Made by a program: the position numbers and the translations under genes. A stretch of 64,000 nt of DNA, taken from Deltaproteobacteria bacterium. Its GTDB lineage: Bacteria; SAR324; JACQKK01. The notes under the pieces were generated by a model. It searched no databases and had not been told where the DNA came from. It was given only the letters and a program-made list of their open reading frames with translations. The stretch spans positions 9,939 to 73,938 of the forward strand of contig JAOUEW010000008.1 of the NCBI GenBank assembly GCA_029858505.1, in the 5' to 3' direction. Positions 13,032 through 29,934 of this stretch are shown piece by piece (positions within the stretch are counted from its first letter, which is position 1; each line of letters opens with the position of its first letter).

Positions 13032-13910
13032 ATGACCACCATCCGCCCAGTCACCGCCGTGGTGACCGCCATCCAAACCATGGAGGGGGCCGGGTTCCCC
13101 GTGCGCAGGCCCTTTCCCACCCCCTCCATGATTCAGTTTGATCCCTTTCTGCTGCTGGACCACATGGGGCCAGTGACTTGGCCCCCCGGCCAAGCCCAGG
13201 GCGCCCCGGACCACCCCCACCGGGGGTTCGAAACGGTGACCTATATGTTGCAAGGCAGCATGGAGCACCGGGATTCCATGGGCAACGTGGCCCGCATGGG
13301 GCCGGGAGACGTGCAGTGGATGACCGCCGGGGCTGGCGTGGTCCACGCCGAAATGCCTCCGCCAGCCTTTTTGCAAGCGGGAGGGGTGATGGAGGGCTTT
13401 CAAATTTGGGTGAACTTGCCCGCCCGGGAAAAAATGAGGCCTCCCCGCTATCAGGGCATCGCCCGGGACCTGCTGCCCCAGGCAGAAAATCCACAGGGGG
13501 TATCGGTGCGGGTGATTGCCGGAGAAGCCTTTGGGGTGAAGGCCGCCATTCACACCCACACCCCCATTCAACTGGTGCATGTGACGGTGCCCCCCGGCGG
13601 AGAGGGCCGCATTGAAACCGCCAGCGGCCACAACGTCATGATCTATGGGTTTTCCGGCGGGGTGCTGGCGGGGGAGGAACGGGTTGCCGTGGGGGAAGGA
13701 CAGATGGCCGTGTTTGGGCCGGGCGATGCCATCACGTTTGCCCTGCCTGCCAGTGCCCCGGCTTCAACCCATTTTTTGCTGCTGGCGGGAGAACCCATTC
13801 GGGAACCCCTGGCCCGCTGGGGGCCCTTCGTGATGAACACCGAACAGGAAATCATCCAGGCCTTCGAAGACTTCCAAAGCGGCAGAATGGGCCAAATTCA
13901 GGCCGAATAG
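13032..13910 (+). CDS. Pirin family protein.
   Basis: HPHRGFETVTYMLQGSMEHRDSMGN...VQWMTAGAGVVHAE cupin/pirin motifs. Confidence 0.85.
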   Translation: MTTIRPVTAVVTAIQTMEGAGFPVRRPFPTPSMIQFDPFLLLDHMGPVTWPPGQAQGAPDHPHRGFETVTYMLQGSMEHRDSMGNVARMGPGDVQWMTAGAGVVHAEMPPPAFLQAGGVMEGFQIWVNLPAREKMRPPRYQGIARDLLPQAENPQGVSVRVIAGEAFGVKAAIHTHTPIQLVHVTVPPGGEGRIETASGHNVMIYGFSGGVLAGEERVAVGEGQMAVFGPGDAITFALPASAPASTHFLLLAGEPIREPLARWGPFVMNTEQEIIQAFEDFQSGRMGQIQAE

Positions 13911-13912
13911 CC

Positions 13913-14926
13913 TTACATGCCGATGTCTAAAAAGTCGGCCAGTTCCTCGGCTACCCCGCGCTTCAGGGTCACGCTGTGCTGCTGCAGTTTGTCTAAAGGC
14001 ACACTGGCGTGCACCATCAGGTGGTCCGCGTAAAAACGATAGGTGCGGGCCATGGCCCAGGGGCGCCCCAGTTGCAAAGTCAGGATAACAATCGCGAAGT
14101 TCCCCAAAACAAGCCATAAATATGCCCCCCCCTTGCCGGTAAACTGAAAGGGGGCACCCTCTAGCCGCAGACGGCTGAAGCGGTAGCGGGTCAGGTTCAT
14201 CACCATCCAGGGGCGAAATACCCCCAGGGTCAGCAGGGTCAGCAGGGCGTTCCAGGTATACAACCGGTAATAATCCATCCCCCCGGCGTCGGTGGTGAAG
14301 CGCAGGTTCCCCAGCCGGATGCGGCTCCATAAGTATTGATGCATCCGGATGGACACCATGGGGAAATACAACCCCAGCGAGAGAATCACCAGCAGCATGT
14401 CCAGGTACATCCGCCTTACAAAGGCTGAAAACTCTCCCTCACAGGCAAAGTGAATCTGCCGCCAGCTTAGGCGGCTCAACCGGAACCGATAGGCCGCCAG
14501 AATTACCCAAGGCAGCACCAGAAAAAAAGCCGCCATCACGCTGAACTGATAAATGAGCTGAATTTGAATTTCCCACAGATGACTGGTCTGACCCATGGCC
14601 ATCAACCCAATGGCCAACACCGTGATCAGCAGCCGGCCTTTCAGCAGTTCAATGCCCCGCCCGTGAAAATCGAAGGGGGTGTCTAACACCCGAGAATTGT
14701 GGGCCAGCATTTTGTACCAGCGCACCTTGGCCCAGGGAGAATACAACCCCAGGGTCAACAGGGTAAGCAGCGCGTTGGCCAGAAACAATCCAAACAGTGT
14801 TTTGCCGCTACCGGTAAAATATCCCCGCACCCAGGGACCAGCTGGGGCCTCCGCAGGCTGAACCCATGGCGAAGCCGCGGGTGTGGGCGGGGAAGACAAG
14901 GGAGAAGTTGGGGATATCGTTTCCAT
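13913..14926 (-). CDS. DUF898 (YjgN-like) inner membrane protein.
   Basis: Repeated LLTLLTLGLYSPWAKVRWYK / LLTLLTLGVFRPW modules typical of DUF898. Start set at METISP. Confidence 0.6.
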   Translation of the reverse strand: METISPTSPLSSPPTPAASPWVQPAEAPAGPWVRGYFTGSGKTLFGLFLANALLTLLTLGLYSPWAKVRWYKMLAHNSRVLDTPFDFHGRGIELLKGRLLITVLAIGLMAMGQTSHLWEIQIQLIYQFSVMAAFFLVLPWVILAAYRFRLSRLSWRQIHFACEGEFSAFVRRMYLDMLLVILSLGLYFPMVSIRMHQYLWSRIRLGNLRFTTDAGGMDYYRLYTWNALLTLLTLGVFRPWMVMNLTRYRFSRLRLEGAPFQFTGKGGAYLWLVLGNFAIVILTLQLGRPWAMARTYRFYADHLMVHASVPLDKLQQHSVTLKRGVAEELADFLDIGM

Positions 14927-15141
14927 AGTGTGTTGTTGTCGCTTATTTCCCAGCCGAATGCAAATGCTCGTTCTTTTTTCTGTGTTGCTTTGAGATTTCT
15001 GCATATCTTTACTATCACATGTCCGTGTGCGATCTCTTCTCCCGCGGGAAACTCTTCTCCGGCCCTTGCCTGGCCCCGGCTGGGGCGGTAGGTTGAAACA
15101 CGGGGGCACCGCCAGACACGATCATACGCCAGGAAGGCGCC

Positions 15142-17046
15142 ATGGGAACCATTCACCTGCTGGCCGACAACGTCATCAACCACATTGCCGCCGGTGAGGT
15201 GGTGGAACGCCCCGCCAGCGTGGTGAAAGAACTGCTGGAAAACGCCCTCGACGCCGGGGCCGACCGCATCACCGTGCTGTTGGAAGACGGCGGGCGGGAG
15301 TCCATCGTGGTGCTGGACAACGGCCGGGGCATGGACCCTGCCGACGCCCGGCTGGCCTGCACCCGCCACGCCACCAGCAAAATCTCTACCCCCGCCGACC
15401 TGGAGAAAGTGGCCACCCTGGGCTTTCGGGGAGAGGCCCTGGCCTCCATCGCCGCGGTATCTCGCTTCGAACTGCTCACTTGCGCCGATGAATCTCAGGG
15501 GGGCACCCGGATCAACATGGAAGGCGGCCGGGAGGTTTCTGTGGCCCCCCAGGGGTTTGCCCAAGGCACCCGGGTCACCGTTCGAGAGTTGTTTTTCAAC
15601 ACCCCGGCCCGTCGTAAGTTTTTACGGGTCGCCGCCACCGAACTACAGGCCGCCCAAAACCTAACCGCCACCCTGGCCCTGGCCCACACCACCGTGCATT
15701 TCACCCTGACCCACCATGGCCGGGTGCTGTATGACCTAACCCCCTGCGCCACCCTGGCCGAGCGGGCCTTCCAGGTGTTCGGCGGAGAGTTTGCCGAAGG
15801 CATGCTGCCCCTAGACGTGATCACCCCCCAACTGCGCATGGAGGGGGTGGTGTCGCTGCCCTCCCAGGCCAAATCCAGCCGCCGCTGGCAATATCTTTAC
15901 ATCAACCACCGCCCGGTGAAAAACGCCGGGCTGAACCACGCGGTGTACCAGGCCTACCGCACCCTGCTGATGAAGGACCGCCACCCGGCCTATATTCTCA
16001 AACTGTTCGTGGAGCCAGCGGAGGTAGACGTGAACGTTCACCCGGCCAAAACCGAGGTGCGCCTGCGCAACCCTCAATTGCTTCACACCTTGCTGGCCGA
16101 CAGGTTGCACCAAGTGTTGATGGACGGCGCCCGGCAGCGGGCCTTTGGCGAGAGTGATCCGGGGATTTCCCGCAGGCCCCCCCCGCCCCGGCCCAGCCAC
16201 CAAGCCCCGGCGGGCAGCCAGTTGGAGTTGACCCTGAAAGCCGCCCAGGAGCGGGTGGGCGAAAGCGCCCCAACGTCTTTCACTTCTCCCTCTGACCCTC
16301 ATCTCTCTAACCCAAACCCCATCAGCCCCAACCCCTCTCGCCTCCCAACCTCTCCCGCCCTGGCTTCTATTGCTGGGCCTGCGGGTTCTGACCCCCATCC
16401 CCTCACCGGAGAGGCCTTTCACTTTCAGCCCCTGCACCCCGCCCCGGCGGCAGAGGCACCCATGGGCGGGGGGCTGCGCCTGCTGGGCCAGCACGACCAA
16501 ACCTACCTGCTGGTGGCCAGGGGAGAAGATTTGCTGGTGGTGGACCAACACGCCGCCCACGAACGGGTGCTGTTCGAGGCCTATCGCACCCAGTACTACC
16601 AAGGCCGCCTGCAAAGCCAAACCTTCCTGGTGCCCCCCACCCTGGAACTGTCTCCGGCCAACAGCCTGCTGTTGGAACAATACCTGCCCCAATGGGAACG
16701 GCTGGGGTTTCAGCTGGAGCCCTTTGGGGGAACCACCTTTTTGGTGCGGGCAGTGCCCGCCCTGCTGGCCCGGGGAGATATCTCCGCCCTGGTGCTGGAT
16801 GTGCTGGACGACTTGGCCCTGTTTGGCAAAAGCGGCCGGGTAGAGGAAGTCATCAACGATATTTTGGAGCGGGTGGCCTGCCACGCCGCCGTGCGGGCCG
16901 GGCAGTCTTTGGCCAAGGAAGAAATGGAAAGCTTGGTGGCCCGGCTGGAGGGCCTGGACATGAACCTGTACTGCCCCCATGGCCGACCCGTGTGGGTGGA
17001 AATCTCCCAGCGGGAATTGGAGAAACGCTTCAAGCGAATCGTGTAA
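15142..17046 (+). CDS. mutL: DNA mismatch repair protein MutL.
   Basis: N-terminal GHKL ATPase (AAGEVVERPASVVKELLENALDAGA...LDNGRGM) and a C-terminal dimerisation domain. Confidence 0.9.
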   Translation: MGTIHLLADNVINHIAAGEVVERPASVVKELLENALDAGADRITVLLEDGGRESIVVLDNGRGMDPADARLACTRHATSKISTPADLEKVATLGFRGEALASIAAVSRFELLTCADESQGGTRINMEGGREVSVAPQGFAQGTRVTVRELFFNTPARRKFLRVAATELQAAQNLTATLALAHTTVHFTLTHHGRVLYDLTPCATLAERAFQVFGGEFAEGMLPLDVITPQLRMEGVVSLPSQAKSSRRWQYLYINHRPVKNAGLNHAVYQAYRTLLMKDRHPAYILKLFVEPAEVDVNVHPAKTEVRLRNPQLLHTLLADRLHQVLMDGARQRAFGESDPGISRRPPPPRPSHQAPAGSQLELTLKAAQERVGESAPTSFTSPSDPHLSNPNPISPNPSRLPTSPALASIAGPAGSDPHPLTGEAFHFQPLHPAPAAEAPMGGGLRLLGQHDQTYLLVARGEDLLVVDQHAAHERVLFEAYRTQYYQGRLQSQTFLVPPTLELSPANSLLLEQYLPQWERLGFQLEPFGGTTFLVRAVPALLARGDISALVLDVLDDLALFGKSGRVEEVINDILERVACHAAVRAGQSLAKEEMESLVARLEGLDMNLYCPHGRPVWVEISQRELEKRFKRIV

Positions 17047-17102
17047 ACCGACTCCCTCTATCACCTTGAATATTCAAAAAAATAGGACTAGGGTTGCGGT
17101 AG

Positions 17103-18683
17103 ATGGTCCGACCAGGAGGTCTCATGGACATTGCTCAGAACACCACCCTGCCTGTTTCCAAGGGTGATTCCACCCGAACCGCCCGTTTGATCTCCCGTGT
17201 TCTTGCCCCCCTCGATCGCCTCTTTCAACGCTGTTACGACTCTCCCTACAATCCGCTGTATCTGTCTGGGGCCCTGACCCTGTTCTTTCTGCTGCTGGTG
17301 CTGGTCACCGGCGCCTACCTGCTGATTTTCTATCGGGCGGGTTCTCCCTACGAGTCCATGGCGGCCATCCAAGAGCAAGTCTGGGGCGGCCGCTGGATCC
17401 GCGCCCTGCACCGCTATGCGTCAGACGCCGCCGTGGTGACGGCGGTGCTGCACATGCTGCGCATGTTTGCCCAGGGGCGCAGCTGGGGGCCCCGGGCCCT
17501 GGGGTGGATCACCGGGGTGGGCATGCTGGCCCTGCTGTGGGGTGTGGGGTGGACCGGCTATGTGCTGGTGTGGGACCAACACGGGTTGATCCTGGCCAAC
17601 CGGGGGGCCCGCATGCTAGACGCTCTTCCCCTGTTCTCCGAGCCCATCTCCCGCATGTTTGCCACCGGCCAGGTGGTGTATCACTTTTTTTTCTTCAACC
17701 TGTTTTTGCACATGGCCATTCCGCTGGTGATGGGGGCCCTGCTGTGGATGCACGTGATGCGGCTGGCCCGGTCGGTTCTGTTTCCTTCTCGGGGGTTGAT
17801 GTGGGGGTCGGGGCTGCTGCTTACCGGATTGTCTGTGGTTTGGCCAGCCCCCTTGGAAGGCCCCGCCGATGCCTTGTCCTCTGGCGGGCGGGTGGCGGTG
17901 GATGGGTTCTATACGTTTTGGCTGGGGTGGAATCTTTCCGGCGGGGCCCTGTGGTTGTTTTGGCTGGCCCTGTTGGGGGGGTTGACCGCCGTTCCCTGGC
18001 TGTTCCGGCCGGGCCTTTTGGCCCGCCCCAGGCCCGCCGTGGTGGATGAAGCCCATTGCGAGGGCTGCACCCAGTGCTATCAAGACTGCCCCTACGAGGC
18101 CATTCAAATGGTCGCGGTGGAAGGCCGAGAAAAACCGGTGGCCCGGGTGGACCCCGCCGTGTGCGTGGGCTGCGGCATCTGTTCCGGGTCGTGCAAGCCC
18201 ATGGTGATTGGCCCCCCAGAGCGGCGGGGCGGCCACCAAATTCGCCAAGCCCGGGCCCTTACCCAGGCCCACCCCCAAACCGTGGTGTGCCTGGCCTGCG
18301 ACAAAACCCTGGGGCGAAACCCCACCCTGCCCGTTGGCGTAACGTTATGGACCATCTCTTGCGGTGGAGAGATTCACGCCGACACGGTGGACGCCCTGTT
18401 GCGGCATGGGGCGGCGGGGGTGATGGTGGTGTCGTGCCCGCCAGAAAACTGCCAAAGCCGAGAGGGTGCCCGCTGGCTGGCGGCCCGCTGGGCGGGAGAA
18501 CGAGACATGCCCCTGCGGGCGAGGGTGGACCGCCGCCGCACCGCCTGGGTGACCCTGGAACCGGGAGACACCAAAACGCTGGCCAGGCTGGCCGCTCAGT
18601 TTCTAGACCGCCTGAACGAACCCGGCCTGCTGCCGGTCCGTGAGGAATCGGGCATCACGCCCACAGGAGAAACCCTGACGTGA
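17103..18683 (+). CDS. Fusion protein: cytochrome b (two-haem four-helix core) + 2x[4Fe-4S] ferredoxin + MvhD/FlpD-like domain.
   Basis: Cytochrome b signature RALHRYASDAAVVTAVLHMLRMF...GYVLVWDQ plus a His pair in helix D (HMAIPLVMGALLWMH). Ferredoxin motifs CEGCTQCYQDCP and CVGCGICSGSCKP. C-terminal VVCLACD...ISCGGE...VVSCPPENCQ resembles the hydrogenase iron-sulfur (delta) subunit. Confidence 0.65.
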   Translation: MVRPGGLMDIAQNTTLPVSKGDSTRTARLISRVLAPLDRLFQRCYDSPYNPLYLSGALTLFFLLLVLVTGAYLLIFYRAGSPYESMAAIQEQVWGGRWIRALHRYASDAAVVTAVLHMLRMFAQGRSWGPRALGWITGVGMLALLWGVGWTGYVLVWDQHGLILANRGARMLDALPLFSEPISRMFATGQVVYHFFFFNLFLHMAIPLVMGALLWMHVMRLARSVLFPSRGLMWGSGLLLTGLSVVWPAPLEGPADALSSGGRVAVDGFYTFWLGWNLSGGALWLFWLALLGGLTAVPWLFRPGLLARPRPAVVDEAHCEGCTQCYQDCPYEAIQMVAVEGREKPVARVDPAVCVGCGICSGSCKPMVIGPPERRGGHQIRQARALTQAHPQTVVCLACDKTLGRNPTLPVGVTLWTISCGGEIHADTVDALLRHGAAGVMVVSCPPENCQSREGARWLAARWAGERDMPLRARVDRRRTAWVTLEPGDTKTLARLAAQFLDRLNEPGLLPVREESGITPTGETLT

Positions 18684-19264
18684 AACGGGAACCGATCCAA
18701 GGACAGGCCGGGAAAATCTTGCTGGGGGGGCTGCTGGGATTGGGGCTGGCCATCGCCACGGCTTGGCTGTCGGCCTGGCCCGTGCAAATGGGCGACGACA
18801 CGCCCCGCCTGCGGGTGGCCTTCCGGTCGGCCCACCGCCAAACCCGGCTGTGCCGCCCCCCCACCACGGCGGAACTGGCCGGGGTGCCCGCCCACATGCG
18901 GCGGAAGGAACTCTGCCAAGCCTGGGAAATTCCCTATCGGCTGCGGATAGCGGTGGATGAACAGACCCTGGCCGATCATGAATTGAAGGGCGGCGGCATG
19001 CGGGGCGACCGGCCGGTATTTGTGGAGGAGGAATTCCCCCTGGTGCCGGGGGTGCACCGGGTGGCGGTGGCGTTTACCCCCCAGCCCCCAGAGCTTCCCG
19101 CCGAGGCCGCCGGGTGGCGCCCCGCGGACCGGGAACGATTTGTGGCGGAAGGCCGCCAAGCCCCCGCCTGGACAATCCACCGGCCGATCACCTTTACGCC
19201 AGGGCGGGTGGTGATGCTGTCGCTGGGCCAGCCCAGTGAATTTATTGTCACCGGCGAACAGTAA
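18680..19264 (+). CDS. Hypothetical membrane-anchored protein, translationally coupled to the cytochrome b fusion.
   Basis: GTG start overlaps the upstream stop. N-terminal TM helix. No family recognised. Confidence 0.45.
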   Translation: MKREPIQGQAGKILLGGLLGLGLAIATAWLSAWPVQMGDDTPRLRVAFRSAHRQTRLCRPPTTAELAGVPAHMRRKELCQAWEIPYRLRIAVDEQTLADHELKGGGMRGDRPVFVEEEFPLVPGVHRVAVAFTPQPPELPAEAAGWRPADRERFVAEGRQAPAWTIHRPITFTPGRVVMLSLGQPSEFIVTGEQ

Positions 19265-19405
19265 TTTGGATTGCCGCCTGAAAGGCGGCGGGGAGGGGTA
19301 TTTCAAAGAGAGATCATACGGCAGCATGAATGGAGCCTGAACAAACAAAACCATGGTTTCACCCATGATCTGGGACAACCCCCAGAAAGAAAATAGGAGA
19401 CATCT

Positions 19406-19479
19406 GCATAACCAGGGTTTTTGCCGTGAAAAGGGGGAATGGGAGATGGGAAAAAATAGGTTATGCAGAGGTCTCTATA
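19406..19479 (+). promoter_or_regulatory. Copy 2 of the conserved upstream motif, embedded in an inverted-repeat structure about 170 bp upstream of the oxidase operon.
   Basis: TGCATAACCAGGGTTTTTGCCGTGAAAAGGGGGAATGGGAG. Arms CTGCATAACC / GGTTATGCAG flank the core. The distal arm GGTTATGCAGAGGTCTCTATA is the reverse complement of TATAGA(CA)GAGACCTtTGCATAACC at copy 1. Confidence 0.5.
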
Positions 19480-19605
19480 TGAGAACGAGGAGAAAATAAA
19501 TTGAAACGGGTTGAACACCCACGGAACGAACCGGAACAGGGTTCCCCGGATCGTCCGCCATGAACTGGAACCCCGCCATCAGCCACGCTGAGAAAGGAAC
19601 GTGTT

Positions 19606-19770
19606 ATGGCCAATAAATCCAACCCATCTGGAGGGCAGCCCCCCCTGGGCCAGCGGTTGTTCGACAGCCCCTTCCTGCTGCTGGCCGCGGGCCTGGTCAT
19701 CATGCTGGTGTTCTATACCGCCTGGGGAATCATCGAATTGGTCACCATGCCCCAGGCCTTGCTCCCCTAA
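19606..19770 (+). CDS. Small (54 aa) membrane protein immediately upstream of coxB; possible oxidase-associated subunit. Below the ORF-track length cut-off.
   Basis: ATG with RBS-like GAAAGGAAC 8 bp upstream. Encodes MANKSNPSGGQPPLGQRLFDSPFLLLAAGLVIMLVFYTAWGIIELVTMPQALLP with one TM helix. Ends 25 bp before coxB. Confidence 0.45.
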   Translation: MANKSNPSGGQPPLGQRLFDSPFLLLAAGLVIMLVFYTAWGIIELVTMPQALLP

Positions 19771-19794
19771 CCCCTTATCCATCAGGAGAACCCC

Positions 19795-20370
19795 ATGCAC
19801 AGTGGAATCGTCTCTCCCCAGGGCGTTTGGTGGAAACCCGCGGCCAAGCCGGAACGGCGGTGGGTTCTCATCTCTCTCGTCTGGTGTTTAATTCTGTTCG
19901 CCATGATGCCCCTGTGGCACTGGAAAGGCGGCCAAAACCCTTCCGGCATCCGGGGGCGCGTGGATCCCGCGGTGTTTAGCGAGCGGGTCGAGCGCTTCAA
20001 CAAACAGTATCAGGTGGGCGAAGACAACGGCATTCCGGTGGTGCAACCGCCGCCGGGCAGCCATGCCTACTTGATGGGAAGCCAGTTCCAGTGGAGCAGC
20101 GTGCTCAAACTGGAAAAAGGCGCCAAGTACATCCTGCATTTGTCTTCTCAAGACGTGAACCACGGCTTCAGCCTGTACCCGGTGAACCTGAACTTTCAGG
20201 TGGTGCCGGGCTACGATTATGGGTTGGAGATTGTGCCGAACCAAGCGGGAGAATACCGCATCGTTTGCAACGAGTTCTGCGGCATTGGCCATCACACCAT
20301 GATTGGCAAGGTGATTGTGGTGGAACCCGGCCAAGGACATGAACCCCAACCGAAAGGAGGCGCGAAATGA
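19795..20370 (+). CDS. coxB: Cytochrome c oxidase subunit II, short ba3-type (single TM plus CuA cupredoxin).
   Basis: CuA ligand pattern H...CNEFCGIGHHTM. About 190 aa with no cytochrome c domain. Confidence 0.8.
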   Translation: MHSGIVSPQGVWWKPAAKPERRWVLISLVWCLILFAMMPLWHWKGGQNPSGIRGRVDPAVFSERVERFNKQYQVGEDNGIPVVQPPPGSHAYLMGSQFQWSSVLKLEKGAKYILHLSSQDVNHGFSLYPVNLNFQVVPGYDYGLEIVPNQAGEYRIVCNEFCGIGHHTMIGKVIVVEPGQGHEPQPKGGAK

Positions 20371-22082
20371 GCAGCCCAACCCAATTTCGCACCTGCGGGG
20401 TCACCGGTCTGAAGGTGGACCGCAACGCGGAGAACCTGCTGAAGATCAACGCGGTGGTGGCGGTGGTGATGTTCACCATCGGGGTGGTGGCGGCCCTGAT
20501 GATTGTGCTGACCCGTTGGCAGGCCGTGCATTTGCTGCCCGCCGATTGGTATTACCGCCTGTTAACGGCCCATGGGCTGAACATGCTGATCTTCTTTATT
20601 ATCTTTTTTGAAATGGCCATTTTGTATTTTGCTGGACCCATTCTGCTGAACGCCCGGCTGCCAGCGCCCAAGGTGGGGTGGCTGGCCTTTGGGCTGATGG
20701 TGGCGGGGGCTGGCTTGGTGGAATGGATGGTGTTCGCCGGCCGGGCCGATGTCACCTTTACCTCCTACCCGCCCCTGCGGGCCGACCCCCTTTACTACCT
20801 GGGGATCATCCTGTTCGCCGTGGGCGCGCTGGTGGTGGTGATGTTGTTCTTCGCCACGCTGGTGGTGGCCAAAAGGGAAAAAACCTACCAGGGATCGGTT
20901 CCCCTGGTGACCTTCGGGGCCATTGCCGCGGCCATCATCGCGGTGATCACCCTGCTGCACGGGGCCATGGTGTTCATCCCCACCTTACTGTGGTCCATGG
21001 GGCTGATCCCCATGGATGCCGAATTCTACCGGCTGGTCTTCTGGGGCCTGGGTCACTCTTCCCAGCAGATCAACGTGGCGGCCATGGTGGCCATTTGGTA
21101 CTTCTTGGCGGCCATGACCATGGGCGGCGTGGTGCTGAACGAAAAAATCAGCCGCATCGCCTTTGTGTTCTATGTGCTGTTTATCTCCATGGCTTCGGCC
21201 CACCACCTGCTGGTGGACCCCGGGTTTTCACCGGCGTGGAAGGTGTGGAACACCAGCTACTTTATGTACATGGCGGTGCTGGCCAGCATGATTCACGGCT
21301 TCACCGTTCCGGCTGGGATGGAACTGGGGATGCGCCTGCGGGGCTTTAACAAAGGCCGCTTTGAATGGCTAACCCGGGCCCCTTGGGGCGATCCTGGTTT
21401 TTCGGGGATGATCCTGTCGTTGTTCATCTTCGGCTTTCTGGGCGGCATCACCGGGGTGGCCATCGGCACCGAGCAAATCAACATTATTGCCCACAACACC
21501 ATGCGGATTCCGGGGCACTTCCACGCCACGGTGGTGGGGGGCACGGCTTTGGCGTTCATGGCCGTCACCTACTACGTCATTCCCCTCATCTTCCGCAAGG
21601 AAGTGGCCCTGTGGCCCTTGGCCAAGATTCAGCCCTACCTGTTCGGGGGTGGAATCACCATCATGTCGGTGGGCATGATTCTGCAAGGCTTCTTTGGGGT
21701 GCCCCGCCGCCATTGGGACATCTCCGGAGCCGACAGCCCCTTCCCCGCCAGCTACCCGCCGGTGGTGGATGTGCTGCAAGCGGTCATGGCCTTGGGCGGC
21801 GTCATCGCCTTTTTGGGCGGCCTGATTTTCGTTTTGGTTGCCGTGCTGTCGGTGTTCTTTGGCAAGCCCTTGACGGACCAGGCCGTGAAAAACGGCACGG
21901 CCAAGGTGCCCCAGGGGGTGCTGCGGCTGCCGCCTCAAGCGCACGATGAAGCCAAAGCCTTGAAGGCCCACGAGGAAGGAACCCCCGGAACGGTCATTCT
22001 GGTCACGGTGTTCTTCCTGTGTTTCGTGCTGTATTACCTGACCAACTGGCAAACCCTGTCGAAACTGTGGCAGGTGGGTTAA
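20367..22082 (+). CDS. coxA: Haem-copper oxidase subunit I, B-family (ba3-like).
   Basis: 571 aa, 12 or more TM helices, His ligands in the HHL... and GHFHA contexts. Start overlaps the coxB stop. Confidence 0.75.
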   Translation: MSSPTQFRTCGVTGLKVDRNAENLLKINAVVAVVMFTIGVVAALMIVLTRWQAVHLLPADWYYRLLTAHGLNMLIFFIIFFEMAILYFAGPILLNARLPAPKVGWLAFGLMVAGAGLVEWMVFAGRADVTFTSYPPLRADPLYYLGIILFAVGALVVVMLFFATLVVAKREKTYQGSVPLVTFGAIAAAIIAVITLLHGAMVFIPTLLWSMGLIPMDAEFYRLVFWGLGHSSQQINVAAMVAIWYFLAAMTMGGVVLNEKISRIAFVFYVLFISMASAHHLLVDPGFSPAWKVWNTSYFMYMAVLASMIHGFTVPAGMELGMRLRGFNKGRFEWLTRAPWGDPGFSGMILSLFIFGFLGGITGVAIGTEQINIIAHNTMRIPGHFHATVVGGTALAFMAVTYYVIPLIFRKEVALWPLAKIQPYLFGGGITIMSVGMILQGFFGVPRRHWDISGADSPFPASYPPVVDVLQAVMALGGVIAFLGGLIFVLVAVLSVFFGKPLTDQAVKNGTAKVPQGVLRLPPQAHDEAKALKAHEEGTPGTVILVTVFFLCFVLYYLTNWQTLSKLWQVG

Positions 22083-22112
22083 CCCATCGCTTTCTTTTCT
22101 TGCTTTCTTTTT

Positions 22113-22151
22113 CCGCCGGAGGGCCTTGCCAGCCCCCGGCGGTTTTTTTTT
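22113..22151 (+). terminator. Rho-independent terminator after coxA.
   Basis: CCGCCGGAGGGCcttgccaGCCCCCGGCGG hairpin immediately followed by T9. Confidence 0.75.
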
Positions 22152-22182
22152 GTAGGCCCCTGGGGTAGATTGAAAGGCAAGA

Positions 22183-23217
22183 TTGCTTCACCCCATCGAG
22201 ATTCCTTTTCTCTTTTTCCGGAGCCGCCCCTTGACTCGTTCTCTGCCCCCGTTGTGGTTTTACCTGTTGGTAATGGCCTTGTTCGCGGCGCTGGCCAGCC
22301 CCGCCCAGGCGGCCCCCACCGGCAGCGTGACCGGACGGCTGACCGGTGACGCCGACCAGGGCTCCATGGCCGGCAAAACCGTGGTGCTGCTGCAAATGCG
22401 CATTGGCCCCCAGGGTCAACCCCAGCCGGTGGGCCCCCCAGACCGCACACAAACCGGCCCCGACGGCGGTTTTGTGTTTGAGAACGTGCAGATTCAGGTA
22501 GGCACGGTGTTTCAGGTGGGCAGCCGCACCCGGGGCGGAGAACTCACCGCCACCCGCCCCTTTACCTTTCCTCCTCGCGGGGGGCGGATCACCATGAACC
22601 TGCATTTGGCCGAGCGCAAAGCACCGGTGGATGCCGAAAGCCCGCCGGTGTGGTTTCAACGGGTGATCGTGGCGGTGGAAGCCAGGAGCGGCCAGGCCGC
22701 CGTGACCGAAGTCATTCACCTGGTGAACAACACGGGCAAACTGGCCTTTGGGCCGGAACATCCCCTGCGGATTCCCATTGCCCCCGGCACCGACACCCTG
22801 GAACCGGCCGAAGGTTTGGATGAGAGCAACTTGAGAAAAGAGGGCCAAGAAGCCGTCATCACCCGCTATATGCCCGCGGGGCGGACGGTGATGATTTTTG
22901 CCTACATCACCAACACCCCCCTGGGCTCTCTCAACTTGGACCGCCGCTACCCCTACCCCGTAGAGGATTTCGCCATCTATTCCCCCGCCCAAGACAAACT
23001 GATCATTGACGGCACCGGGTTGCTGCCCAGGGCTCCGGAAAACATTCAAAATACCTTGTTTCAAGTGTGGGGCCGCGCCAATATTCTAGCCGACACCGAG
23101 ATCAGCGCCAGCGTGCAGGGGTTGCAGCCTAGCCAATGGATGTTCGGCTTGCCGGCCCTGCTGTTCTTGCTGGTCATGGGTGGGTTGGTGTTCCGCTACC
23201 TGCGGCAAACCAAGTAG
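22183..23217 (+). CDS. Hypothetical exported protein: N-terminal CarboxypepD_reg-like beta domain and a C-terminal TM anchor.
   Basis: Signal peptide ending ASPAQA. GSVTGRLTGDADQGSMAGKTVVLLQ...TGPDGGFVFENV module. C-terminal hydrophobic helix WMFGLPALLFLLVMGGLVF. Confidence 0.5.
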   Translation: MLHPIEIPFLFFRSRPLTRSLPPLWFYLLVMALFAALASPAQAAPTGSVTGRLTGDADQGSMAGKTVVLLQMRIGPQGQPQPVGPPDRTQTGPDGGFVFENVQIQVGTVFQVGSRTRGGELTATRPFTFPPRGGRITMNLHLAERKAPVDAESPPVWFQRVIVAVEARSGQAAVTEVIHLVNNTGKLAFGPEHPLRIPIAPGTDTLEPAEGLDESNLRKEGQEAVITRYMPAGRTVMIFAYITNTPLGSLNLDRRYPYPVEDFAIYSPAQDKLIIDGTGLLPRAPENIQNTLFQVWGRANILADTEISASVQGLQPSQWMFGLPALLFLLVMGGLVFRYLRQTK

Positions 23218-23403
23218 GGAATTCCAGCATCCCCCTCAACCGTTCCGTTGATTCCGCCGGACGGAAGCCATCCCGTCACTTATCGGCTTCAAACCATCCC
23301 CCCCTCCCTGATTGGGGAGGGGGCAGGGGGGAGAGGTGTTGATGGGGGGTGTTGTTGGGAGAGATGTGAAAAATAAAGGTTAAGCAAATGTCTCCGGGAA
23401 CGG

Positions 23404-24453
23404 TTACTCCACCCAGGTGATTTGACCCTTCAGGGCTTCCACGTTGGCCGGGCGGTATTCCGGATCGGCGGCCATTTTTTGTTTCACGCTCACGTGCAGG
23501 TTGGGGGAGCGGGCCGGGTTCAGGCGGCCGTCTTCCAGCACCCCAATTTCCCGAGGCTTTTGGGTCCAACCCGCGGGCAGCACCCGGTGGGGGTAAATAT
23601 CGGCGGCGGGGTTGGGGTGAATCTGTTGGAAAGCGTTGTCTTTAAAGGTCAGCCCCAGGGCCTGGGCTTTCTTCATCATATACGCCAGCGATAGGTCCGA
23701 CAGCCCCTCCTGGGGCACGCCCCCGCCCACGTCCTCGTGGCCGCCGGGGAACCACACTTCTTCCACCTTGTCTTGGCGGTTCATCTGGGTGGGGGTTAAA
23801 ATTTCCCGGTTCTCATCCACCGCCACCAGGTGCAGGGCCTGCTTAATGTTGGGGGCCACCGTGAGGTTTTTGAACAGGTTGATCTTTTGAAAGGGGCCGT
23901 TTGGAATGCCAAAGGCTGCCATGGTCTCCCAAACGCCCACCAATTCAATGTCCACCGGACGAAACCCGCCCCGGTTTTCAAAGGCCACCACCTCGCCCCG
24001 CATGTTTTTCACAATGCGAATGGCTTCGGGAATGCCCCGCTGATGAATTTTCTGGGCCAGCATCCGGGCGATGGCCGCCCCCCGGGAAAACCCAAACAGA
24101 AAAATGCGGTCGCCGGGGCGGTAGTTCGTCACCAACACCACATAGGCTTGGTCGCGCAGCAAGTCGGCGCTGGCGCCGTCTCCTCCCAGGGGGGGGCCGC
24201 CCACAGAGGCCTCGGCCGGGGCCCCAACCCCTGGAAAATAGCGGGCGAACTGCCGGGAAGAATCGGCCAGCAGGCCGTAGAGTTTCAACACGTTGCTGGC
24301 CGAGCCGTTGTTTTTTTCATCTCCGGCGGGCAGGTTCCAGGTGCCATCCACGCACAGAACAAAATTCCGCGGGGATTCCTGCATTTGCCCTAAGTTGGGG
24401 TAATAGGTGTACTCGTGGCGCATGGTGTGGGTAGGAATAAGGGTGTAAGCCAA
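23404..24453 (-). CDS. DUF2235 alpha/beta hydrolase (same family as T6SS Tle1-type phospholipase effectors).
   Basis: FVLCVDGTWN near the N-terminus and a GFSRGAA nucleophile elbow are typical of DUF2235. Confidence 0.65.
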   Translation of the reverse strand: MAYTLIPTHTMRHEYTYYPNLGQMQESPRNFVLCVDGTWNLPAGDEKNNGSASNVLKLYGLLADSSRQFARYFPGVGAPAEASVGGPPLGGDGASADLLRDQAYVVLVTNYRPGDRIFLFGFSRGAAIARMLAQKIHQRGIPEAIRIVKNMRGEVVAFENRGGFRPVDIELVGVWETMAAFGIPNGPFQKINLFKNLTVAPNIKQALHLVAVDENREILTPTQMNRQDKVEEVWFPGGHEDVGGGVPQEGLSDLSLAYMMKKAQALGLTFKDNAFQQIHPNPAADIYPHRVLPAGWTQKPREIGVLEDGRLNPARSPNLHVSVKQKMAADPEYRPANVEALKGQITWVE

Positions 24454-28563: not shown

Positions 28564-29934
28564 ATGGATGTCACCAGTGAAATGCTGAACAAATACAACG
28601 TATCGGCCCCCCGGTACACGTCCTATCCCGCCATTCCCTTTTGGAAGCCCGCCGACGGCACCCAGGCCGCGGCTTGGATTGCCGCCATGGAACCCGCCCG
28701 GCAAACCTCTTTGTCTTTGTACACCCACATTCCCTTTTGCAAAACCCGCTGTTACTACTGCGGCTGTTTCGTGGTGATTTCTCCCCACGAAGAGATTGCC
28801 CAGCCCTACGCCGATGCCCTGGAAAAAGAAATGGAACTGGCGGCGGGGCAAATGAAACACCGCTGGCCGGTGGCCCAGTATCACCTGGGGGGCGGCACCC
28901 CCAATTACCTAAACATTGCCCGAATGGAACGCTTGGTGGCCAAAGCCCGGGCGTTGTTTCCCTTTCAAGACGATGCCGAGATGAGCATTGAGGTTGACCC
29001 CCGCACCCTGAACAAAAATTATCTGGAACGGGTAAGGGCCCTGGGGTTCAACCGGCTGAGCCTGGGGGTTCAAGACTTCGACCCCGAAGTGATGGAAACG
29101 GTGAACCGGGTGCAGCCTTACGACATGGTGGCTGGCGTGGTGGAGCAGGCCCGCAAACTGGGCTTTTTATCGGTCAACTTTGATTTGATCTACGGGCTGC
29201 CCAAGCAAACCACCGCCACCTTTCAAAAAACCATGGCCCAGGTAAAAACCTTGGGCCCGGACCGGGTGGCGCTGTACCACTACGCCCACCTGCCCGACTC
29301 TCATCCCTATCACCGCCGGTTCGACCCAGCGGACCTGCCCGGCAGCCAAGAAAAGATGGATATTTTTCTGCAGGCCAGGGAGCGGTTTTTGTCGTGGGGT
29401 TATCAACCCATTGGGTTGGACCACTTTGCCAAGCCCGATGATGACCTGTCGGTGTCCTTCCGCAACCGCTCTATGCGGCGGAACTTTATGGGCTACACCA
29501 CCAAAGCCGGAACCGACATGCTGGCCTTTGGCATCAGCGCCATCAGCGATTTCAACCATGCCTTCTGGCAAAACGAAAAAAAGCTGCCCCATTATTACAA
29601 AGCCCTGGAAAAAGGCGAGCTGCCCGTGATTCGCGGATTGGAGCTGAGCGGAGACGACCGCCTGCGCCGCCAGGTCATCCAAAACCTGTTCTGCCAGGGG
29701 GGGGTAAATTTTGGGCAGATGGAGCAGGCCTACCAGATTCCGTTCCAAAGCCACTTTGCCGGAGAACTGGAAGCCCTGGCCCCCCTGCAAGACGATGGCT
29801 TGGTGACCCTTTCTCCAGAGGGCATCACCGTCACCGATCAGGGGCAGTTGTTCCTGCGGAACATCGCCATGACCTTCGACGCTTACCTGCGAAAAGGCAG
29901 CAAACCCCCGGTGCAGTTCTCTCGCACGGCATAA
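28564..29934 (+). CDS. hemN: Oxygen-independent coproporphyrinogen III oxidase (radical SAM).
   Basis: YTHIPFCKTRCYYCGC radical-SAM cluster motif. About 456 aa with an HemN C-terminal domain. Confidence 0.85.
   Translation: MDVTSEMLNKYNVSAPRYTSYPAIPFWKPADGTQAAAWIAAMEPARQTSLSLYTHIPFCKTRCYYCGCFVVISPHEEIAQPYADALEKEMELAAGQMKHRWPVAQYHLGGGTPNYLNIARMERLVAKARALFPFQDDAEMSIEVDPRTLNKNYLERVRALGFNRLSLGVQDFDPEVMETVNRVQPYDMVAGVVEQARKLGFLSVNFDLIYGLPKQTTATFQKTMAQVKTLGPDRVALYHYAHLPDSHPYHRRFDPADLPGSQEKMDIFLQARERFLSWGYQPIGLDHFAKPDDDLSVSFRNRSMRRNFMGYTTKAGTDMLAFGISAISDFNHAFWQNEKKLPHYYKALEKGELPVIRGLELSGDDRLRRQVIQNLFCQGGVNFGQMEQAYQIPFQSHFAGELEALAPLQDDGLVTLSPEGITVTDQGQLFLRNIAMTFDAYLRKGSKPPVQFSRTA

Follow-up and report, generated by a model that had tools for sequence, protein, structure and literature searches.

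The operon at positions 19606 to 22151 of a 64,000-nucleotide (nt) stretch of contig JAOUEW010000008.1 (Deltaproteobacteria bacterium, SAR324 lineage; assembly GCA_029858505.1; this whole stretch is referred to as the window) raises the question of whether a compact gene set annotated as a terminal oxidase does reduce O2. It comprises three open reading frames (ORFs), i.e., those for a 54-amino acid (aa) membrane protein, a subunit II with a CuA domain (coxB) and a heme-copper subunit I (coxA), and is preceded by a gene for a fusion of cytochrome b, iron-sulfur (FeS) and MvhD-like parts and by a gene for a 194-aa protein (p194). The initial annotation described a minimal B-family (ba3-like) oxidase operon. 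Comparison of these sequences with their relatives indicates that the locus very probably encodes an eNOR-type nitric oxide (NO) reductase, i.e., a heme-copper enzyme that branched from the B-family oxidases; membership in eNOR was judged by the diagnostic residue, clade composition and genomic context.

Active site and relatives of subunit I

Subunit I matched the Pfam family COX1 (7e-64), and its closest solved structures were B-family oxidases, i.e., the Aquifex enzyme (7DEG; 2e-46) and ba3 of Thermus thermophilus (approx. 1e-43), as compared to E values near 1e-5 for A-family enzymes. All six His ligands could be aligned (H69, H230, H279, H280, H384 and H386, equivalent to H72, H233, H282, H283, H384 and H386 of ba3). 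Public records name the protein cytochrome c oxidase subunit I, and a C-family (cbb3) name is also given; the NCBIfam models ccoN (TIGR00780) and CtaD scored 18.6 and 74.8 bits against cut-offs of 583 and 671, respectively. An A-family oxidase was ruled out by the difference in E values (approx. 1e-5 versus 1e-44 for the B family), and a cbb3 (C-family) oxidase by the ccoN score and by a partner subunit that is a CuA protein and not a cytochrome c.

In oxidases, the cross-linked Tyr of the active site supplies the fourth electron for O2 reduction. When the region starting at H230, the first active-site-metal ligand (ba3 H233), was aligned with ba3, the sequence G-H233-P-I-V-Y237-F-W239 corresponded without gaps to G-H230-S-S-Q-Q234-I-N236 in the window (motif GHSSQQIN), which places Gln (Q234) at the position of the cross-link Tyr Y237. 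The residue at this site is diagnostic among heme-copper enzymes, with Tyr in oxygen reductases, Gln in eNOR, Asn in sNOR and Glu in cNOR and qNOR (PMC8756737 section 2.7.1, Table A4, after Hemp & Gennis 2008). As Gln at the Y237 position is the published eNOR signature, the reading as an O2-reducing ba3-type enzyme is not supported. The description of coxA as a B-family protein was thus correct in that subunit I is B-family-like and has ba3 as its best PDB match, but it does not extend to the O2-reducing ba3 type, as the cross-link Tyr is replaced by Gln; for the same reason, the substrate at the O2 end of the "electron-input-to-O2 chain" proposed initially should read NO.

Further replacements relative to ba3 concern W239 (N236), Y244 (V241) and T312 (H310), while other K-channel-type residues are kept, i.e., S307 (S309 in ba3), T313 (T315) and Y245 (Y248) in subunit I and E20 (E15) in subunit II. 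Q233, Q234, N236, H310, Y245 and Y269 were invariant in 88/88 subunit I homologs, S307 was found in 87/88 and T313 in 85/88, and the motif GHxxQQ was present in 90/90 related loci. When the four K-channel residues by which B-type enzymes are recognized in ba3 (Y244, Y248, S309 and T312; Prunetti et al., PMC3128077) were considered, two were lost (Y244 to V241 and T312 to H310) and two, Y248 and S309, were kept. A single proton channel is predicted for eNOR (PMC8756737). The eNOR purified from Rhodothermus marinus (Rmar_0161) reduces NO (0.68 NO per second) and shows no O2 reduction (Murali et al., PMC11214002); its subunit II is of the CuA type, and its K-channel-like residues include the equivalent of S309 (PMC11214002).

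Subunit II has one predicted transmembrane (TM) helix (residues 21 to 43) and lacks a cytochrome c domain, while its CuA site is complete (H123, C158, E160, C162, H166 and M169), in agreement with the initial description of coxB as a short, CuA-only subunit II. It matched subunit II of T. thermophilus ba3 (2e-18) and scored above the cut-off of Pfam COX2. The CuA ligands were kept in 86 to 87 of 87 subunit II homologs, the sole change being Glu to Asp at the E160 position, and E20, which corresponds to Glu15 of ba3 where the K channel begins, was invariant (87/87). No gene for a subunit III or IV was found among the called genes of the locus or the crude ORF calls of the window, as also stated initially. 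A one-helix CuA subunit II without subunits III and IV is common to eNOR and the B family and has no discriminating power.

A genuine O2-reducing B-family (ba3-type) terminal oxidase, for which the small ORF would encode a true subunit IIa, appears highly improbable. This explanation would fit the solved structures closest to subunit I, the retention of S307, T313, Y245 and E20 of subunit II, the combination of a one-helix CuA subunit II with a small upstream TM ORF as in cbaDBA, and the public name cytochrome c oxidase subunit I. On the other hand, it conflicts with Gln in place of the cross-linked Tyr in all 88 homologs, with the replacement of Y244, T312 and W239 by Val, His and Asn, respectively, with ccoN and CtaD scores far below their cut-offs (18.6/583 and 74.8/671), and with the lack of O2 reduction in the sole characterized eNOR (PMC11214002).

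Subunit I has more than 8000 homologs. An exhaustive search of 1.84 billion representatives, followed by alignment, yielded three tiers. The window protein and its nearest representatives (42 to 100% identity) carry GH-x-x-Q-Q-x-N, sequences from Hodarchaeales and Thermoproteota (37 to 45% identity) carry GH-x-x-Q-Y-x-N, and true B-family sequences (28 to 33% identity) carry GH(P/A)xVYFW. In a neighbor-joining tree of 38 taxa, the QQ group was monophyletic in 199/200 bootstraps, and the QQ and QY sequences together were set apart from the B family in 177/200. The low identity and separate grouping of true B-family sequences also argue against a ba3-type oxidase, as does the presence, in locus L004, of a genuine B-family pair (GHPLVYFW; 13177-15513) that coexists with an eNOR cluster, approx. 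3 kb downstream of it and after an Rrf2 gene. The 68-aa ORF upstream of this B-family pair gave a sub-threshold match to CoxIIa (E 0.51) and no match to the profile of the eNOR small proteins; these data indicate that two enzyme types and two different small peptides coexist in one genome.

Relatives of subunit I were found in at least 584 species-level genomes; the best 80 genomes (56 to 72% identity) represented Gemmatimonadota, Bdellovibrionota, Methylomirabilota, Nitrospirota, Acidobacteriota, Myxococcota, Rhodothermales, Gammaproteobacteria and others. Named members of the QQ clade include the haloarchaeon Natrarchaeobius, Fodinibius halophilus and metagenome-assembled genomes (MAGs) of Rhodothermales, and plasmid-borne copies occur in Defluviimonas, Thermomicrobium roseum and T. 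thermophilus. Haloarchaea are the group of the first eNOR description. The Thermus copy (locus L011) shows VGHFK, in which Lys replaces the second His ligand of the low-spin heme; His/Lys ligation of the low-spin heme has been reported for some eNORs (PMC11214002).

Gene neighborhoods in these relatives include denitrification genes. The cluster of T. thermophilus TTHNAR1 adjoins nirS, a multicopper oxidase gene, an Rrf2 regulator gene and a ScdA-like gene, i.e., a denitrification island, and no cNOR gene is annotated in the stretch of approx. 20 kb around it; in locus L006, genes for a NirK-cytochrome c fusion and a NirV-like protein directly follow subunit I. Other eNOR loci carry ScdA/hemerythrin, Crp/Fnr or Rrf2 genes. 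Of 92 eNOR loci, 72 had an adjacent SCO1 gene, 42 an Rrf2 regulator gene, 21 a heme O synthase gene and 7 a nir-like gene.

Next to eNOR stands an archaeal QY grade from Thermoproteota and Hodarchaeales (loci L092, 7001-8671 and 10176-11825, and L093, 7001-8749; representatives P0155, P0156, P0158 and P0173; motif GHxAQYxN), which keeps the cross-link Tyr, already has the eNOR-type residues Q233, N236 and H310, and has no cytochrome b module. Its operons also carry a small ORF upstream of subunit II, with the weakly similar motif LLDNxWL...Y..W..E. It is possible that this grade is intermediate between oxidases and NO reductases. Another, separate group among the subunit I homologs (P0201, P0209, P0210, P0283 and P0293, with P0201 from a Dehalococcoidia MAG) has an unusual set of ligands, i.e., H-x-x-H-Y at the active-site helix, Y-H in place of the H-H metal ligands and Tyr in place of the proximal His of the high-spin heme (ba3 H384). 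In addition, the last TM helix of subunit I is encoded by a separate gene of 67 to 69 aa in genomes with a shorter subunit I (508 to 528 aa); such separate ORFs (L004, 10274-10477; L007, 7707-7916) matched 87 to 88 loci, the window locus among them, mostly at the C-terminus of subunit I. The family is polymorphic in this respect, through gene fission or fusion.

Several observations weigh against the assignment of this locus to eNOR. The invariant Tyr Y269 lies in helix VII, 10 residues before H279 and approx. one turn below the position that supplies the cross-linked Tyr in C-family oxidases, and it could still reach the active site; Y269 is also present in the Tyr-retaining sister sequences, and no Tyr migration has been reported in these heme-copper families (Murali et al., PMC11214002). 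Genes for nir, nos, Rrf2, SCO1 and heme O/A synthase are absent from the 64-kb window, in which searches for homologs of SCO1, heme O/A synthase, Rrf2, ScdA, Crp/Fnr, NirK, NirS and NirV found none. Moreover, the small protein shows no detectable sequence similarity to CbaD or CoxIIa, and the R. marinus eNOR was purified as two bands, which the legend of a preprint figure takes as subunits I and II (bioRxiv 10.1101/2021.10.15.464467, Extended Data Fig. 3). Since nir and nos genes are lacking in the window, NO detoxification or partial denitrification may be the role of the putative NO reductase in this genome.

The 54-aa membrane protein

As described initially, a small single-TM ORF with a good ribosome-binding site lies directly ahead of subunit II, in the position of cbaD (subunit IIa) in ba3 operons. 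The ORF is not, however, unannotated or missed by default as had been stated, since the NCBI record of the MAG lists it as hypothetical protein OEV94_10700 and the ENA, JGI and Logan gene calls include it. The encoded protein has one hydrophobic segment, a variable N-terminus and a conserved core, PLGQRLFDSPFLLLAAGL..FYTAWG...LP. The public collection contains 28 called homologs with 56 to 79% identity in addition to its own public copy, and homologs are annotated on the Defluviimonas, T. roseum and T. thermophilus plasmids. A homolog on the same strand was located directly upstream of subunit II in 87/90 loci, usually at a distance of 4 to 29 nt (24 nt in the window). The 3 exceptions were two contigs that end upstream and the Thermus plasmid, where the annotated small homolog has 41 aa and a family-profile score of 20 bits. 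The ORF was thus conserved ahead of subunit II in related genomes, which was the check that the initial annotation had proposed for it.

Among 68 genomes (44 aligned codons), pN (nonsynonymous) was 0.275 as compared to a pS (synonymous) of 0.614, and nucleotide diversity at codon positions 1, 2 and 3 was 0.34, 0.20 and 0.53, respectively. Such a pattern is that of an ORF that is translated and subject to purifying selection. A chance ORF and a leader peptide were both ruled out by the conservation of the amino acid sequence across phyla.

The comparison with Thermus CbaD/subunit IIa that had been suggested initially detected no homology by Pfam, PDB profile, hhalign or hmmsearch. Pfam gave no hit for the window protein at E ≤ 0.1 and none for three orthologs from cultured organisms at E ≤ 1; a PDB search with the family profile, in a library that included the ba3 entries, gave none at E ≤ 10; hhalign of the family against a CbaD sequence gave a probability of 0.2%; and hmmsearch gave a negative score. 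We therefore claim a positional and functional analogy to CbaD/CoxIIa only. The motif of the family is LxDxPFLLLxxG...Y(T/L)xWG...P, whereas IIa peptides are characterized by a conserved Gly and Trp and by the motif P-X1-3-G-(T/A) (PMC3128077). The window protein has P13-L-G15-Q16 and W40, which are invariant in its subgroup, with a Gly-to-Trp spacing of 25, not 16; the P-x-G motif is missing in the small orthologs from Defluviimonas, T. roseum and Thermus.

A single-helix peptide upstream of subunit II is general in B-type enzymes with a one-helix subunit II and absent from those with two helices (Prunetti et al. 2011, PMC3128077). The same study tabulated a small ORF of Magnetospirillum magneticum AMB-1 as a putative IIa that lacks the otherwise conserved glycine (PMC3128077). 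As the heme-copper gene neighborhood of AMB-1 has been described as eNOR (Murali et al., PMC11214002), an eNOR-type small ORF has in effect been listed before. The IIa helix of ba3 runs parallel to the helix of subunit II (PMC3141039), and the charge distribution of the small protein (positive-inside) suggests an N-in/C-out orientation, i.e., the same sense as IIa. The protein appears to be specific to the eNOR lineage including the archaeal QY clade, and we interpret it as a conserved small partner of eNOR and as the positional equivalent of ba3 subunit IIa, for which a IIa-like function can be proposed at most by analogy.

It is also conceivable, though unlikely, that the enzyme is an eNOR and that the 54-aa protein is a transient assembly or cofactor-insertion factor rather than a stoichiometric subunit. 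CcoS of cbb3 oxidases, which is a small single-TM assembly factor, would be a comparable case. The two bands in purified R. marinus eNOR (preprint legend), the lack of homology to CbaD/CoxIIa and the frequent presence of assembly genes (SCO1, heme O synthase) in eNOR operons are compatible with such a factor. The small ORF, however, is always first in the structural operon, 4 to 29 nt from subunit II, even where assembly genes are distant or, as in the window, absent, and a one-helix subunit II is the reported condition for a IIa-like helix (PMC3128077). Furthermore, peptides of 4 to 6 kDa are routinely missed on gels; IIa-type peptides were invisible on them, and detection of IIa in Aquifex ba3 needed intact-mass mass spectrometry (PMC3128077).

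The cytochrome b fusion and p194

The fusion protein upstream of the operon matched the Pfam families Cytochrome_B (2.8e-16), FlpD (4.5e-11) and Fer4. Its N-terminal 200 residues matched cytochrome b6 (PDB profile; 1e-25) with four heme-ligand His, its middle matched the 2x[4Fe-4S] ferredoxin domains of HdrA and FwdF, and its C-terminus matched MvhD (1e-10); the best NCBIfam hit, ExtP cytochrome b, was far below its cut-off. The conserved His residues form two pairs 14 residues apart (H103/H117 and H203/H217), as expected for two b hemes, and two CxxCxxCxxxCP motifs as well as C399, C420, C445 and C450 in the MvhD-like part are also conserved. No protein that combines cytochrome b6, 2x[4Fe-4S] and MvhD parts was found described in the libraries and literature searched, and a literature search for a cytochrome b-MvhD fusion returned nothing relevant.

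In the product of the gene that follows, p194, a TM helix at the N-terminus precedes a soluble domain of mostly beta structure, which is probably periplasmic; the protein carries the invariant motif C58-x13-H72-M73-R74-x4-C79. It had no Pfam, NCBIfam or PDB match, and a single-sequence AlphaFold model was unusable (mean predicted local distance difference test score 49.6). The p194 protein is a constant companion of the fusion; its homologs follow the fusion gene in 67 loci and are joined to the fusion protein in 15 loci (approx. 675 to 760 aa); loci with the joined form include L012, L015, L017, L019, L022, L025, L076, L078, L079, L082, L084, L088, L089 and L091. The occurrence of a single-polypeptide form in relatives argues that the two separate products in the window act together.

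A homolog of the fusion protein was present in 73/92 eNOR loci, either upstream on the same strand, divergent, or downstream after heme O synthase and SCO1. The association was also assessed in the reverse direction, with 80 metagenomic loci picked only through the fusion protein (41 to 55% identity). All loci with at least 4 kb on both sides (14/14) carried subunit I (GHxxQQIN), subunit II, the small ORF and p194, and 17/19 loci with at least 4 kb on one side carried the same four genes. In 72,556 plasmids, the sole full-length homolog of the fusion protein adjoins the Defluviimonas eNOR. Hence, the cytochrome b/FeS fusion named initially as the upstream neighbor of the operon is genuinely linked to it, but the p194 gene between the fusion and the small ORF had been overlooked. 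The T. roseum and Thermus eNOR clusters lack the fusion/p194 pair despite full flanks, and so do the archaeal sister loci, which suggests that the pair is accessory rather than catalytic.

Two functions of this pair can be considered. One, which we hold to be less likely than not, is a dedicated electron input, in which the two b hemes would relay electrons supplied by the quinone pool or by a cytoplasmic donor to a periplasmic carrier and on to CuA. Tight association with eNOR in both directions, conservation of all heme and FeS ligands of the fusion, and the role of the b6-type domain as the quinol-handling core of bc complexes would be in line with this function, as would a Chloroflexi fusion homolog joined to a c-type cytochrome domain (PMC8756737 Table A3) and the predicted periplasm-facing location of p194 with its invariant Cys, His and Met. 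Conversely, p194 has no recognizable redox-cofactor motif or family, the FeS and MvhD domains are predicted to be cytoplasmic, so that a way out for electrons on the periplasmic side is not obvious, the T. roseum and Thermus clusters without the module indicate that it is not essential for catalysis, and the R. marinus eNOR turns over with N,N,N',N'-tetramethyl-p-phenylenediamine (TMPD)/ascorbate alone (PMC11214002).

The other possible function, for which we see a similar, likewise less than even chance, is maturation, e.g., by a membrane metal reductase and a chaperone that would provide reduced Cu or Fe to CuA or the active site. An analogy is offered by CcoG/FixG, a 2x[4Fe-4S] cupric reductase needed for the assembly of cbb3 oxidases. 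The order of a membrane domain, 2x[4Fe-4S], a TM helix and a beta domain is reminiscent of CcoG, the invariant C...HM...C residues of p194 are typical soft-metal ligands, and the pair is in many loci found downstream of subunit I behind the assembly genes for heme O synthase and SCO1, with SCO1 present in 72/92 loci. The fusion and p194 show, however, no sequence match to FixG/CcoG, PCuAC or another family, and the window contains the pair but no SCO1. A tentative suggestion is that bacterial eNOR forms the core of a five-gene unit (small subunit, subunit II, subunit I, cytochrome b fusion and periplasmic Cys/His/Met protein) and is not a two-subunit enzyme.

Operon layout, proposed mechanism and known systems

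The features of the locus are collected in Table 1. The three ORFs (54, 191 and 571 aa) are found where they had been placed initially, each with a ribosome-binding site, and the operon does end in a clean terminator, with a hairpin (22113-22142) followed by T9 (-24.7 kcal/mol; z = -3.82; 0/200 shuffled sequences fold as well); part of the terminator was also detected by a separate scan. The spacer ahead of the small ORF probably contains the promoter and regulatory sites of the operon. At 19348-19359 it has the perfect 12-bp palindrome AAACCATGGTTT, on either side of which lie the arms of an inverted repeat, AGATCAT (19311-19317) and ATGATCT (19365-19371). This palindrome region could represent a regulator site or a hairpin on the minus strand; a sigma-70 consensus scan of positions 17000 to 23500 found no match.

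Table 1. Coordinates of features in the window and, in the last row, of the Thermus relative
Feature	Position	Strand	Details
Cytochrome b/FeS/MvhD fusion gene	17103-18683	+	526 aa from first start codon; 519 aa in gene calls, with start at 17124
p194 gene	18680-19264	+	194 aa; start overlaps fusion stop by 4 bp
Spacer 5' of small ORF	19265-19605		340 bp; AT-rich relative to the 60% GC window
Ribosome-binding site of small ORF	19594-19598	+	AAGGA; 7-nt spacer to ATG
Small single-TM ORF	19606-19770	+	54 aa; ATG start
Subunit II gene	19795-20370	+	191 aa; AGGAG ribosome-binding site; one TM helix and CuA cupredoxin domain
CuA ligand codons of subunit II	20161-20163; 20266-20301	+	H123; C158 to M169
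Subunit I gene	20367-22082	+	571 aa; catalytic heme-copper-superfamily subunit; ATGA overlap with subunit II stop
Active-site motif of subunit I	21054-21074	+	H230-S-S-Q233-Q234-I-N236; ungapped alignment to ba3 and 7DEG
Extra C-terminal TM helix of subunit I	21969-22079	+	Separate ORF in some genomes
Intrinsic terminator	22113-22151	+	GC-rich hairpin then T9; folding and scan
Downstream ORF	22183-23217		344 aa; outside conserved unit
Thermus eNOR-type subunit I	L011 9001-10686		T. thermophilus TTHNAR1 plasmid 4, NZ_LR027520.1

The 344-aa protein encoded downstream of the terminator had been considered initially as a possible part of the chain; in the comparison of eNOR loci it was confined to contigs of its own genome, and it does not belong to a conserved unit. 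Its initial label, CarboxypepD_reg-like, had no Pfam or NCBIfam support at E ≤ 0.1, and no Pfam, NCBIfam or PDB family was matched. Just further downstream lies an unrelated gene for a protein with a catalytic domain of type VI secretion system Tle1-like phospholipases (23404-24453, minus strand; Pfam 2.5e-48). A HemN-like gene is found at 28564-29934, 6.5 kb downstream of the operon. Radical-SAM/HemN-like genes recur near eNOR clusters (L003, 1-1329 and 6676-7914; L007, 456-1793), and a 445-aa type occurs in 8/92 loci; the recurrence of such genes may be linked to heme handling.

Enzymes of the eNOR family are described as containing heme As. By comparison with this family, electrons from a periplasmic donor would pass to CuA, to the low-spin heme and to the binuclear site, where NO would be reduced according to 2NO + 2e- + 2H+ -> N2O + H2O; protons would probably be taken up on the cytoplasmic side, and the reaction would thus be electrogenic. 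The 54-aa protein would be a third single-helix membrane component from the same operon, with its helix most likely N-in/C-out beside the lone subunit II helix, like IIa in ba3, and would stabilize the complex or help to assemble it. The fusion and p194 would act as a dedicated accessory module, either for transmembrane electron feed or for metal reduction and delivery in maturation.

The main practical value of the locus is the correction of its annotation. The cytochrome c oxidase name is a systematic misnomer across thousands of public entries, and if the enzyme is taken for an oxidase, aerobic respiration is attributed to an organism in which formation of N2O from NO is more likely. The mislabeling concerns more than 8000 close homologs and genomes of at least 584 species, and correct calling thus affects nitrogen-cycle inventories; in an estuarine survey, eNOR represented 860/1486 nor genes and showed the highest transcription (PMC13592168). 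The small protein and the fusion/p194 pair, which are kept across many phyla, are candidates for a missing subunit and for electron-input or maturation machinery, and both bear on whether NO reduction by eNOR conserves energy. If the five-gene unit exists and its last two members provide an electron route or a metal-reducing maturation system, they would constitute a new respiratory or assembly module for N2O-producing enzymes.

Among known systems, the fusion protein differs from b6f cytochrome b6, HdrA and MvhD in that neither a Rieske protein nor cytochrome c1/f nor subunit IV accompanies it here. The bNOR (qCuANOR) of Bacillus azotoformans is likewise an NO reductase derived from the B family with a CuA subunit and a K-type proton channel. 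It has, however, an sNOR-type active site (PMC11214002), with Asn at the Tyr position in sNOR (PMC8756737 Table A4), and represents a separate lineage, which we set apart on the basis of its description. The small protein shares with CoxIIa (PF08113) the location of a single-TM peptide immediately upstream of a one-helix subunit II; in the window subgroup, a P-x-G that precedes the helix and an invariant Trp close to where the helix ends may be further points of likeness, whereas its family motif is shared weakly with the archaeal Tyr-retaining sister clade and not with CbaD. T. thermophilus ba3 (cbaD-cbaB-cbaA; PDB 1EHK, 1XME and 3S8F) has the same gene order, a subunit I match of 1e-43 and window equivalents for its six His ligands, S309, T315, Y248 and subunit II Glu15, but it differs in the His233-Tyr237 cross-link, W239, Y244 and T312 as compared to Q234, N236, V241 and H310, in an identity of approx. 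30% and in a small peptide that is unrelated in sequence.

The published descriptions of eNOR that were consulted present a two-subunit enzyme and do not mention a protein of approx. 50 aa or a cytochrome b-FeS-MvhD/p194 pair, and a literature search for an eNOR structure returned nothing relevant. The window copy is stripped-down relative to other eNORs, as genes for SCO1, heme O/A synthase, a regulator and nir are all absent from the 64 kb. The lineage-specific family of small proteins and, above all, the two-way association between eNOR and the cytochrome b-2[4Fe-4S]-MvhD/p194 pair seem to be undescribed. On the other hand, eNOR itself is already known and widespread, and the small upstream helix follows an organizational rule that has been described before. 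The locus resembles this family in Gln for the cross-linked Tyr, in the three active-site His and the heme ligands that are kept, in a CuA subunit II directly upstream, in what may be a partial set of S309-type K-channel residues, and in relatives that lie next to nirK or nirS with heme O/A synthase genes in or near the operon. Further points of likeness are a very wide phylogenetic spread, abundance in metagenomes and the routine mislabeling as cytochrome c oxidase (PMC8756737). Known examples of eNOR are R. marinus Rmar_0161 (PMC11214002) and the "cytochrome a1-like" hemoprotein of Magnetospirillum.

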